Shown piece by piece: positions 6,539 through 28,397 of a stretch of DNA of 34,089 bases. The stretch's first letter is position 1. Each line of letters starts with the position of its first letter. Origin of the DNA: an uncultured archaeon (GTDB lineage Archaea > Aenigmatarchaeota > Aenigmatarchaeia > Aenigmatarchaeales > Aenigmatarchaeaceae); contig CAZZIA010000001.1 of NCBI GenBank assembly GCA_964654075.1, forward strand, positions 1-34,089, in the 5' to 3' direction. The notes under the pieces were generated by a model. The model made no database searches. It was not told where the DNA came from and saw nothing but the letters and a program-made list of their open reading frames with translations. The position numbers were made by a program, and so were the translations under genes.

Positions 6539-6653
6539 TGGTGGGCCAGGCAAGATTTGAACTTGCGATATCTACCTTTCTTAGTGGTTTGTAAGGGTTG
6601 CACGTTTGCCATTAATGACAAACTTAGCGTCATAACCACTAGACCACTGGCCC
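6539..6653 (-). tRNA. tRNA-Val(UAC), 2 introns (27 nt at 29/30, coordinates 6598-6624; 12 nt at 37/38, coordinates 6578-6589), CCA encoded
   Basis: GGGCCAG TG GTCT-AGTGGTTA-TGAC G CTA|..|CC CTTACA|..|A GGTAG ATATC GCAAG TTCAAAT CTTGC CTGGCCC A CCA. The second intron has a perfect CTTA/TAAG central helix. The first has GTTTG/CAAAC plus a relaxed ACGC/GTGC helix. The spliced length is 76 nt. Confidence 0.8.
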
Positions 6654-23883: not shown

Positions 23884-24018
23884 GCCCGAGTAGCTCAGAG
23901 GAAGAGCGACTGGCTGTTAGCAAAATGGCTGGAACCAGTAGGTCACTTATGGATAAGTTAAGTGCTTTCCATAGATCAAAGGTTCGAAATGTGGACGGAG
24001 ATCCTGTCTCGGGCGCCA
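23884..24018 (+). tRNA. tRNA-Asn(GUU), 3 introns (14 nt at 37/38, coordinates 23920-23933; 33 nt at 50/51, 23947-23979; 13 nt at 59/60, 23989-24001), CCA encoded
   Basis: GCCCGAG TA GCTC-AGAGGAA-GAGC G ACTGG CTGTTA|..|A CCAGT AGGTC AC|..|AGG TTCGAA|..|T CCTGT CTCGGGC G CCA. The G73 discriminator is present. The BHB central helices GGTC/GATC and TTCG/CGGA restore a perfect ACAGG/CCTGT T-stem and a TTCGAAT loop. The spliced length is 75 nt. Confidence 0.85.
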
Positions 24019-25995: not shown

Positions 25996-26118
25996 GGGGT
26001 AGTAGCTCAGACTGGGAGAGCGCACGAGGATGCTATCCTGCGAAGCTGAAGACCGTGAATGGGATGCTTGGCATCTCATCGGGAAATGTCGTGAGTTCAA
26101 ATCTCACCTACCCCACCA
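25996..26118 (+). tRNA. tRNA-Phe(GAA), 2 introns (18 nt at 30/31, coordinates 26027-26044; 28 nt at 43/44, coordinates 26058-26085), CCA encoded
   Basis: GGGGTAG TA GCTC-AGACTGGGA-GAGC G CACG|..|G CTGAAGA CCGTG |..| ATGTC GTGAG TTCAAAT CTCAC CTACCCC A CCA. Intron 1 has a textbook BHB: CGCA/TGCG central helix, CG|A and AA|G bulges, and a GGAT/ATCC inner helix. Intron 2 has a 9-bp inner helix plus ACCG/CGGG. The spliced length is 77 nt. Confidence 0.85.
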
Positions 26119-26151: not shown

Positions 26152-26706
26152 ATGTTCGTTCGTATTGTCCCGGCAGGAAATATAGCTCCAAAAATTCTAG
26201 AGTTGGTATGTGCTGGACTTGAAGAAGTGCTAAACTCGAGATGTAGAATACTTCAAAAAGTACAAATACCAAAAGAAGCGTGGGATCACTGGAGAAGGCA
26301 ATATGATGCTGAAAAAATACTAGAGAGCCTCGTAGACACTGGTGCTGCAAAGTTCATAGACAAATCAATACCAACAATAGGCATAACAGATGAAGATATA
26401 TATTATAAGGGATTAAACTTTGTATTTGGGCTTGAAGAACCAGCTACAGGTTGTTGCATAGTATCGATTGCTAGACTAAAGCAGGAATTTTATGGCCAAA
26501 GTTCAAATATGGGGCTTTTAGTTGATAGGACTGTTAAAGAAGTTATACATCAAATTGGCCACCTTTTTGACTTAAGTCACTGCCAATACCCAACATGTGT
26601 GATGTGCTTTTCACCATCAGTAAACGACGTTGACAATAAGCAAAAGTATTTTTGTGACAACTGTAAAATTAAAATAGCGAGAAAAGGTATCAGGATGTCT
26701 GATTAA
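26152..26706 (+). CDS. amzA: archaemetzincin (peptidase M54)
   Basis: 184 aa. HQIGHLFDLSHC (HExxHxxGxxH-type with Q in place of E, plus Cys), followed by C..CVMCF and CDNC zinc-binding cysteines. Confidence 0.85.
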   Translation: MFVRIVPAGNIAPKILELVCAGLEEVLNSRCRILQKVQIPKEAWDHWRRQYDAEKILESLVDTGAAKFIDKSIPTIGITDEDIYYKGLNFVFGLEEPATGCCIVSIARLKQEFYGQSSNMGLLVDRTVKEVIHQIGHLFDLSHCQYPTCVMCFSPSVNDVDNKQKYFCDNCKIKIARKGIRMSD

Positions 26707-27246
26707 ATGACTGAAGGTAAACTTGTAGAAGATAAAGTAATTATCTGGGATATAGAAGGTGGGAAAGAAATTTATGAAACTGCATATTATGGCAAACTAA
26801 AGGAAGATAGGCTAGAGCTGGCATTGATAGAGGCATGCTTGCTTTTAGAAAGGCAGAAAATTGACATATTGGACGAAGATGGCAAAAAAATGAAATTTGA
26901 TAAATTTTTTCATTATTGCTGCAAAATTGATAAAAGATTTGTATCTAGATATGTTGTGTATAAAGATTTAAGGGAAAGAGGATTACCAGTAAGGACTGGA
27001 TTTAAATTTGGATGTGATTTTAGAGTTTATGAAAGAGGTGTAAAGCCGATAAAGAGGGGGCCAAAAGCACCTGGCGAGCACACAAAATGGATTGTATTTG
27101 CTGTTTCAGAAGATTATACGTGCTCATTTCATGAACTTTCAAGGGCTGTAAGACTTGCCCACAATATCAGAGCAAACATGCTATGGGCGATTGTTGATGC
27201 GGATTTAGATGTTACATATTATACAGTAACATTTACCAGACCTTAG
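26707..27246 (+). CDS. endA: tRNA-splicing endonuclease EndA (179 aa, alpha4-sized), atypical active site
   Basis: YVVYKDLRERGLPVRTGFKFGCDFRVYERG...GEHTKWIV...AVRLAHNIRANMLWAIVDADLDVTYYTVTF aligns along its length with the M. jannaschii EndA sequence as I recall it. Tyr and His of the triad are present. The Lys position reads Ala. Confidence 0.9.
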   Translation: MTEGKLVEDKVIIWDIEGGKEIYETAYYGKLKEDRLELALIEACLLLERQKIDILDEDGKKMKFDKFFHYCCKIDKRFVSRYVVYKDLRERGLPVRTGFKFGCDFRVYERGVKPIKRGPKAPGEHTKWIVFAVSEDYTCSFHELSRAVRLAHNIRANMLWAIVDADLDVTYYTVTFTRP

Positions 27247-27254
27247 GTGAGAAA

Positions 27255-28397
27255 ATGTTCGTAAAAGATATAATGTCAAAAGATATAGTATCTCTTTCTC
27301 CAGATGAGCCTGTATCAAAATTTATTTCTTTGATGGAACAATTGCACATACATGAAGTTCTCATTGTTGATGATGCTAAAAGGCTCTTGGGCGTTGTAGA
27401 TTATAAATCCCTTGTTACAACAGGCATTACAGACCCGACTTCGATACAACTTAAAAAGCTTATGCAACCTTTACCGCAGCTAGTTTCCCCTGAAGATGAC
27501 ATGTCTGATGCAGCTGATCTGATATTTAAAACAGGACTCCGTGCCGTTCCTGTAGTTAAAAATAAAAAAGTAGTTGGAATTGCCTCTGTATTTGATATAA
27601 TAAATAACATAATCAAGACAAAACAGTTTAGACAAACTTATGCAGAGGCTTTGATGTCTTCAGTTCTTACAGTTACAAAAGATGATGACATTGGCAAAGC
27701 CAGGGTATTAATAAGAGAAAGGAATTTATCAAGGCTGCCTGTTGTTAATTCTGACGGAAAGCTGGTTGGTGCTGTTGCTGTTTTTGACTTGCTAAAGGCA
27801 ATTAAGCCACGTGAAAGAATGGGCTGGTACTCTATGGTAGCTGAGAAAAAAAGGATAATGGGAATAGCTGTTTCAACTGTGATGAACCGTAACCCGGTTA
27901 CAGCTGCTAGAAGCGCATCACTAAATGAAATTGGAAATTTGATGGCAAAGTACAAAACTTCTGGCATTATTATAACTGATGATAGCAAACCGGTCGGTAT
28001 CATTACTTTAAAGGACTTGCTAGAAGTTTATATCGCAGGGATGCAACAAAAAGGAGTTTATTATCAAATCATAGGGATAGAAAATGAAGATGAATTTGTA
28101 TTAGACACTGTAGATAGAATGATAAGAGATACCATACAAAAACTTTCTTTCATTTATCCGCCGCAATTTTTCTTTGTACATGTAAAGAAGTATCAAAAGG
28201 AAGGCGCTGTAATGAAATACTCTGTCAGAACAAGGCTGAAAACAGACCGAGGTGTATTTATCAGCAGAGGGTGCAAATGGGATTTGCGAGATGCTGTTGG
28301 TGATGCTTTAGATCATCTAGAACGTGCAATGCTTAAATGGAAAGGTGTTGTTACAACAAAAACAAAACGTAACATACAAAAGTTGAAGCAAATATAA
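27255..28397 (+). CDS. four-CBS-domain protein with C-terminal HPF/RaiA (S30AE)-like domain
   Basis: 380 aa. There are two CBS pairs (aa ~1-120 and ~133-262, e.g. VMNRNPVTAARSASLNEIGNLMAKYKTSGIIITDDSKPVGIITLKDLL). The C-terminal ~100 aa (YQIIGIENEDEFVLDTVDRMIRDTIQKLSFIY...FFVHVKKY...YSVRTRLKTDRGVFISRGCKWDLRDAVGDALDHLERAMLKWKG) matches the HPF pattern. Confidence 0.8.
   Translation: MFVKDIMSKDIVSLSPDEPVSKFISLMEQLHIHEVLIVDDAKRLLGVVDYKSLVTTGITDPTSIQLKKLMQPLPQLVSPEDDMSDAADLIFKTGLRAVPVVKNKKVVGIASVFDIINNIIKTKQFRQTYAEALMSSVLTVTKDDDIGKARVLIRERNLSRLPVVNSDGKLVGAVAVFDLLKAIKPRERMGWYSMVAEKKRIMGIAVSTVMNRNPVTAARSASLNEIGNLMAKYKTSGIIITDDSKPVGIITLKDLLEVYIAGMQQKGVYYQIIGIENEDEFVLDTVDRMIRDTIQKLSFIYPPQFFFVHVKKYQKEGAVMKYSVRTRLKTDRGVFISRGCKWDLRDAVGDALDHLERAMLKWKGVVTTKTKRNIQKLKQI

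Follow-up and report, generated by a model that had tools for sequence, protein, structure and literature searches.

Can a tRNA-splicing endonuclease that has lost the lysine of its catalytic triad still remove the introns of its organism, and if so, which residue takes the place of that lysine? The question is raised by the endA gene in a 34,089-nucleotide (nt) stretch of DNA (the window) from an uncultured archaeon of the Aenigmatarchaeaceae, in the phylum Aenigmatarchaeota (GenBank assembly GCA_964654075.1, contig CAZZIA010000001.1, positions 1 to 34,089). The gene lies on the plus strand at positions 26707 to 27246, an intact open reading frame (ORF) of 179 codons for a tRNA-splicing endonuclease (tRNA-intron lyase) of 179 amino acids (aa). 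Its N-terminal EndA domain (PF02778; aa 3 to 68, 26713 to 26910) and C-terminal catalytic domain (PF01974; aa 78 to 171, 26938 to 27219) are both matched above cut-off, with 66 and 94.6 bits, respectively. The protein retains the catalytic Tyr and His and carries an alanine at the position of the catalytic Lys. Judged from its genomic setting, it is almost certainly the only splicing endonuclease at work in its organism, as its Lys-less relatives would be for much of the phylum.

To locate the triad, we aligned the protein by phmmer with the sequences of four solved catalytic units, those of Methanocaldococcus jannaschii (MJ; PDB 1a79), Nanoarchaeum equitans (NEQ205; 3iey_A), Methanopyrus kandleri (MKA; 5x89), and ARMAN-2 (4fz2), whose triad residues have been numbered (PMC2761253, PMC5829648, and PMC3488258); residues of homologues were read from phmmer-anchored alignment columns. 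Tyr108 (27028 to 27030, plus strand, as for all endA features below) aligns with MJ Tyr115 and ARMAN-2 Tyr236, and His125 (27079 to 27081) aligns with MJ His125, NEQ His102, and ARMAN-2 His251. From His125 to residue 164, all four alignments are free of gaps, and counting along them places Ala156 (codon GCA, 27172 to 27174) at MJ Lys156, NEQ Lys133, MKA Lys334, and ARMAN-2 Lys282. A first-pass annotation of the window, relying on an M. jannaschii triad of Y115/H125/K156, had proposed that Tyr and His are retained and the Lys is lost; its numbering matches the published one (PMC2761253), and the alignments bear out both parts of the proposal. It had also described a Tyr-His loop seven residues longer than that of M. 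jannaschii, with four basic residues. Indeed, 16 residues separate Tyr108 from His125 compared with 9 in MJ, giving a seven-residue insert that contributes to a basic loop (Gly111 to Glu124, 27037 to 27078) containing K113, K116, R117, and K120. The protein is a true homologue of EndA, in the alpha4 class with the loop known as L3, and it departs from the textbook description of a catalytic subunit in one respect, the triad Lys.

The predicted fold is that of a normal EndA. An AlphaFold2 (AF2) model built on a 53-sequence homologue alignment has a mean predicted local distance difference test (pLDDT) score of 90 and a predicted template modeling (pTM) score of 0.86, with L3 residues 111 to 120 at a pLDDT of about 76; a single-sequence model was discarded as too poor (pLDDT 60.6, with L3 below 50). 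In Foldseek, the top PDB match of the model is chain A of M. jannaschii EndA (1a79_A; template modeling scores 0.88/0.92, root mean square deviation 1.8 Å), and the remaining strong PDB matches are all archaeal EndA or human TSEN chains. Outside the triad, Arg149 (27151 to 27153), which is invariant, aligns with the residue that recognizes the bulge in the substrate of other EndAs (ARMAN-2 R275, AFU R280; PMC12397907). The second bulge-recognition position, an Arg or Trp near the C terminus, is Arg178 here and Ser in most relatives. An acidic DADLD segment (aa 164 to 168, 27196 to 27210) aligns with DADGD of MJ in the phmmer alignment and forms what we take to be the L10 loop region, and the enzyme is presumably an alpha4 homotetramer. 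The acidic L10 loop of EndA is used in tetramer assembly (PMC2761253), the other element of which is the pairing of beta9 with beta9'; the acidic segment has the same pattern as DADGD of MJ, which is suggestive of such an assembly.

The missing lysine is a property of a whole lineage. All 120 of the closest database homologues have Ala or Ser at position 156, in the motif LAHNIR[AS]xMLW. Among 111 distinct catalytic units collected from Aenigmatarchaeota genome loci, chosen for having Tyr108, His125, and L3, the residue is Ala in 94, Ser in 15, and Thr in 2, and it is Lys in none; 11 codons are used at this position, among them every one of the four for Ala, members of both Ser families, and two for Thr. 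In a comparison of the 133 closest units with Ala, Ser, or Thr at 156 (Ala-type) and 130 Lys-type units, the catalytic Tyr is invariant on both sides (133/133 and 130/130), as is the catalytic His on the Ala-type side. A tree of 304 EndA units unites the Ala-type units and a set of His-less paralogues (beta, described below) in a single clade with support of 90; the His-less beta clade (support 100) is nested within the clade that contains the window's protein (support 98). More distant Ala-type members are labelled Nanohaloarchaea and Aenigmarchaeota. Because Ala, Ser, or Thr is found lineage-wide and these units form one clade, the Lys was lost early and probably once, and the loss has been kept through several changes of subunit architecture. 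By these sequence comparisons, the Lys-less lineage covers most Aenigmatarchaeota and some Nanohaloarchaea.

No second endA was found in this assembly (676 kb, 112 contigs, 91.6% complete), either by hidden Markov model (HMM) search at an E value of ≤10 or by tblastn using alpha, beta, fused, and epsilon EndAs as queries. Neither was one found in eight near-closed relatives (1 to 7 contigs, with genome G114 in a single contig), each of which yields one match at E ≤ 10. A single endA is present in 10 of the 11 genomes of the window's own family, and just one strong EndA match occurs in 81 of the 151 Aenigmatarchaeota genomes sampled across the phylum. This genome has neither a separate beta gene nor a fused second unit, so that its endA is a single gene of ~180 aa as in the alpha4 type. 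The epsilon2 type, with three units in ~390 to 400 aa and an additional loop called ASL, is ruled out by the length of 179 aa and by the epsilon tblastn query, which matches only this same locus.

The tRNA genes show what such an enzyme would have to cut. All three tRNA genes of the window are interrupted (112 to 132 nt), and some of the insertions lie outside the anticodon loop, in the variable region or T-arm. We judged introns from matches to the tRNA model RF00005 and used the intron mode of aragorn, which gave inconsistent anticodons and introns, as a hint only. The gene at 25996 to 26118 (plus strand; 41.4 bits, 120 nt), with GAA in the anticodon region (Phe), has two insertions, in the anticodon arm and the variable region; that at 23884 to 24018 (plus strand; 33.5 bits, 132 nt) has three; and that at 6542 to 6653 (minus strand; 47.8 bits, 112 nt) has one of ~39 nt in the anticodon region. 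All three are likely substrates of the window's EndA. Genome-wide there are 16 RF00005 matches; just 3 of the 12 above threshold have a length of about 72 nt, and aragorn reports only 7 uninterrupted tRNAs. With only 16 matches in the genome, disruption has probably put many tRNA genes beyond detection. Relatives with a single EndA likewise have many tRNA matches of 100 to 190 nt. In the near-closed genomes G114, G105, G015, and G019, the tRNA model gives only 8 to 14 matches at E ≤ 0.001, mostly of 85 to 197 nt, a sign that in some Aenigmatarchaeota families the tRNA genes may be disrupted to an extreme degree.

The genome also encodes the RtcB ligase (E = 7.7e-170), and to our knowledge no other archaeal enzyme removes bulge-helix-bulge (BHB) introns. 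Since the only endA coexists with intron-bearing tRNA genes and RtcB, and no other remover of BHB introns is known, we infer from this genomic logic that the Ala-type EndA must be catalytically competent.

The loop between Tyr and His is itself known. Kaneta et al. (2018) named it L3, the Nanoarchaea/ARMAN-2-specific loop, reported it from alpha4-type EndAs in a number of DPANN lineages, and linked it to increased tRNA gene disruption (PMC5829648). In the NEQ and ARMAN-2 structures it lies near the triad, with the catalytic His lying within L3, and K93, K94, K96, and R97 of NEQ were proposed as determinants of broad specificity (Hirata et al. 2012, PMC3488258); K116, R117, and K120 of the window's protein align with NEQ205 K93, K94, and R97. 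The first-pass annotation had likened the loop to the Crenarchaeota-specific loop (CSL), a comparison that does not hold, as the CSL belongs to the N-terminal portion of the catalytic unit and this loop is L3. Some Lys-bearing enzymes have L3 as well (NEQ205 and ~35 sequences of the P0173 family), and the gain of L3 and the loss of Lys are therefore separate events. By contrast with the loop, the Lys-less lineage is new as far as the literature was searched: the Tyr/His/Lys triad is called conserved in all EndA types both in a 2019 review and in the 2025 paper on the ARMAN-2-RNA structure (PMC12397907), full-text searches found no description of an EndA lineage without the Lys, and ARMAN-2 EndA with the K282A substitution is inactive (PMC3488258).

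Which residue could make up for the loss? The explanation that we favor, somewhat more than its competitors taken together, is that this single-subunit, L3-bearing protein would be the organism's only and functional endonuclease for tRNA and rRNA introns, with the Lys replaced by a small residue and its role most likely taken over by an L3 lysine. As in canonical cleavage of BHB RNA, which leaves 2',3'-cyclic phosphate and 5'-OH ends, Tyr108 would act as the general base and His125 as the general acid. The role left vacant would be to hold a non-bridging oxygen of the scissile phosphate and stabilize the transition state, and a lysine of L3, which flanks the active site, would assume it, with Lys120 (27064 to 27066) as the first candidate and Lys116 (27052 to 27054) as the second. 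Space for this lysine would come from the small side chain at 156. The more specific proposition that EndA across the phylum has had its catalytic Lys moved from the position after helix 141-153 to L3, at Lys120 or Lys116, is one that we offer tentatively, as rather less than an even prospect.

As candidates, we considered basic residues conserved in Ala-type units but not generally, namely Lys116, Lys/Arg117, Lys120, Arg155, Arg35, and Lys127. Position 120 is Lys in 110 of the 111 genomic Ala-type units and in 131 of the 133 closest ones, and it is Arg in all Lys-bearing L3 enzymes examined (~35 of the P0173 family, P0226, P0247, and NEQ R97). Position 116 is a near-invariant Lys in Ala-type units only (K in 103 and R in 4 of the 111); among L3 enzymes with the catalytic Lys, it varies. 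Distant Ala-type units have Asp or Glu at position 117. Lys127 is K in 97 and R in 13 of the 111 units. Further evidence comes from sister families in the same order, which have a beta-like paralogue directly upstream of alpha that lacks His and L3 and has Ala, Ser, or Thr at 156. Because these beta paralogues deleted L3 along with the His but kept Arg155 and Lys127, as well as the small residue at 156, it is L3, rather than Arg155 or Lys127, that is tied to the active site.

The ARMAN-2-RNA complex places the equivalent positions on the substrate (PDB 9W2K, Table S2). There, Lys282 NZ binds OP1 and O5' at the scissile phosphate, the backbone O of E248 contacts bulge nucleotide 14, and NE1 of W249 binds a backbone phosphate; E248 is the residue aligned by phmmer with Lys120, and W249 is its neighbor. 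R281 and K253, the ARMAN-2 equivalents of Arg155 and Lys127, are not listed in the contact table. ARMAN-2 K241 and K244, equivalent to K113 and K116, are described as having no demonstrated part in activity or specificity (PMC3488258). The contrast at position 120, the beta deletions, the ARMAN-2 contacts, and the report on K241 and K244 together lead us to rank Lys120 before Lys116. The first-pass annotation's idea that a loop lysine might substitute in cis thus survives as the leading candidate mechanism, on the indirect evidence of Lys120 conservation, the loss of L3 in beta, and the ARMAN-2 contacts.

We also considered N153, T126, and W160 as substitutes for the Lys and rejected them, since they are not cationic and several Ala-type members have Ser in place of N153. 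Lys127 was set aside as well, because the beta paralogues and the L3 enzymes of the Lys type keep it and its ARMAN-2 equivalent makes no RNA contact.

Two homologue types lack both Lys156 and L3. P0167, from a metagenome-assembled genome of Diapherotrites (loci L153 to L155), reads AHNIRTR, with Thr156-Arg157. P0189 and P0214, unnamed archaeal proteins, read S/G-V-K-T, with Lys155-Thr156, an arrangement that resembles a shift of the Lys by one residue.

Takeover by an L3 lysine has to be weighed against several other accounts. That a Lys at the catalytic position is merely hidden by misalignment or sequencing error has a negligible probability: four independent ungapped alignments to solved structures concur, the model superposes on 1a79 with a deviation of 1.8 Å, and Ala, Ser, or Thr stands at position 156 in more than 200 homologues through 11 codons; alignment, fold superposition, and homologue conservation together led us to reject it. 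Almost as hard to sustain is the suggestion, made in the first-pass annotation, that the protein is a structural partner of an unseen catalytic paralogue. In this account it would be a noncatalytic subunit or a dead enzyme, with cutting done by a gene missing from the assembly, and the 91.6% completeness in 112 contigs gives it some room, as does the Lys-bearing epsilon-type EndA of some other Aenigmatarchaeota families. Nevertheless, we regard it as very improbable. The HMM search and all four types of tblastn query found no second gene here, and the near-closed genomes and 10 of the 11 family members have exactly one. Further, Tyr and His do not vary among the 133 Ala-type units, and Lys120 and Arg155 are nearly constant, as expected of a catalytic subunit; genuine structural paralogues in this lineage have lost both His and L3, which the window's protein keeps together with Tyr.

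The other two accounts accept an active enzyme and differ in what they put in place of the Lys. In one of them nothing specific would replace it: Tyr108 and His125, general contacts (the backbone NH of Thr126, Arg106, and Lys100), and the in-line geometry of the bulge would be enough, and the enzyme may be slower, at a cost tolerable for a slow-growing symbiont. In Ala-type and Lys-type enzymes alike, Arg106, Lys100, and the position following His are conserved, their ARMAN-2 counterparts R234, K228, and S252 N contact the attacking 2'-OH and neighboring phosphates (PDB 9W2K), and the Lys-less EndAs P0167, P0189, and P0214 exist without L3. Even so, K282A abolished detectable cleavage in ARMAN-2 EndA (PMC3488258), the unusually many introns per tRNA in these genomes argue against a crippled enzyme, and the strictly small residue at 156 together with conserved Lys116 and Lys120 suggests a site that was rebuilt rather than merely depleted; we therefore consider an unreplaced Lys unlikely, although worth keeping in mind. 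Less probable again, in our estimate, is compensation by a basic residue outside L3, either Arg155 (27169 to 27171), which adjoins the lost Lys and could swing into the space left at Ala156, or Arg35, in an N-terminal loop at the place of the CSL and ASL. Arg155 is Arg in 111 of 111 genomic Ala-type units compared with R, K, or N in Lys-type enzymes, and the Lys155-Thr156 of P0189 and P0214 has the look of a one-residue Lys shift. Arg35 is enriched, with R or K in 84 to 95% of Ala-type units and 32% of Lys-type units, and lies near a position aligned to the substrate-contacting Lys161 of the ASL. However, the ARMAN-2 equivalent of Arg155, R281, makes no RNA contact in 9W2K, and Arg155 is also present in the noncatalytic beta paralogues, suggesting a structural role; for Arg35, the protein has no insertion of the CSL or ASL type, and the residue is less conserved than Lys120.

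Takeover by an L3 lysine, which we still prefer, faces difficulties of its own. The K282A form of ARMAN-2 EndA has no activity despite its L3-like loop, indicating that the loop alone does not rescue activity; the force of this objection is reduced by ARMAN-2 having no basic residue at the Lys120 position. The contrast between Lys and Arg at position 120 amounts to effectively one evolutionary event and could reflect lineage history instead of compensation. From P0167, P0189, and P0214, it appears that loss of Lys may be tolerable without L3. Finally, the loop is two residues longer in the window's protein than in ARMAN-2, which makes the equivalence of K120 and E248 approximate.

Comparison with characterized enzymes sets these features in context. 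M. jannaschii EndA (alpha4, 1A79) is the best PDB match in sequence (E = 1.6e-33) as well as in fold and, like the window's protein, is a 179-aa, two-domain product of a single gene with Tyr, His, the recognition Arg, and an acidic DADxD segment. It differs in having Lys156 where Ala156 stands here and in lacking L3 (9 residues rather than 16 between Tyr and His), and it is reported to cut strict BHB motifs only (PMC5829648), whereas the introns in this genome are multiple and occupy non-canonical positions. [quoted passage not shown] Closest in class are the L3-bearing alpha4-type EndAs of DPANN and Hadesarchaea (PMC5829648), which likewise combine a single subunit with L3, but for which the triad is described as conserved and no Lys-less members are mentioned (PMC5829648, the 2019 review, and the 2025 structure paper). 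The epsilon2 EndA of ARMAN-2 ("Candidatus Micrarchaeum acidiphilum"; 4FZ2 and 9W2K) has an L3-like loop, YFPGAKPIK...H, and homologues in other Aenigmatarchaeota families, and it differs in its three units (~390 aa), its ASL, and its retained Lys282.

Within the phylum, the Lys-less unit occurs in more than one architecture. In the (alpha-beta)2 pairs of the sister families, alpha is the orthologue of the window's protein (55 to 69% identity), with Ala or Ser at 156, an L3 with Lys116 and Lys120, and the same neighborhood, amzA-...-endA-CBS/HPF; the difference is the His-less, L3-less beta directly upstream, which is absent from the window's family. One family (loci L057 to L060, L070, and L071; proteins P0121 and P0301 to P0303) has a fused two-unit EndA of 365 to 410 aa with Tyr, His, and Ser or Ala at the Lys position in both units, and L3 in the C-terminal unit only. 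Several others (L052 to L056 and L061 to L069) have an ARMAN-2-like, epsilon-type EndA of ~400 aa with a normal Lys (AHGVKKTF), either alone or beside an intact Ala-type gene, so that a genome sometimes has two different splicing endonucleases.

The Tyr-His-Lys triad has been treated as universal, from archaea to humans, in reviews and structure papers up to 2025. A lineage whose sole EndA lacks the Lys and carries a heavy burden of introns is a natural experiment on how far the chemistry depends on Lys and on what L3 does. WNK ("with no lysine") kinases lack the catalytic Lys at its canonical place and are supplied with one by a neighboring element of the same domain. They offer an analogy only, as their fold and chemistry are unrelated to those of EndA and the relocation in EndA is hypothetical; were it true, EndA would be a natural "with-no-lysine" rebuild of a Tyr-His-Lys site. 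In that case L3 would have a catalytic role beyond RNA binding, and relocation of the Lys to it could explain the acceptance of many irregular intron positions. For annotation, scoring a "missing catalytic residue" would wrongly label such endA genes as inactive or structural. The question is also directly testable, since the gene is small and substrates are encoded a few hundred bases upstream of it.

In the window, endA is preceded on the same strand by a gene for an archaemetzincin (Peptidase_M54; amzA, 26152 to 26706), whose stop codon abuts the endA ATG, and is followed by a gene encoding four CBS domains. The order amzA-[beta]-endA alpha-CBS/HPF-like gene is conserved across the order (window positions 26152 to 28397; loci L032 to L151). 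In the window's family, the slot of beta between amzA and endA is empty or occupied by unrelated genes. We considered a decayed beta gene in the 560- to 690-nt amzA-endA gap of some relatives and rejected it from two loci, which contain unrelated ORFs instead, of 189 aa (L044) and 182 aa (L073). Three cysteines, Cys71 (26917 to 26919), Cys103 (27013 to 27015), and Cys139 (27121 to 27123), are kept in 104, 122, and 115 of the 133 Ala-type units, respectively; the corresponding residues in Lys-type EndAs are Ala, Thr/Ala/Ser, and Phe/Leu.

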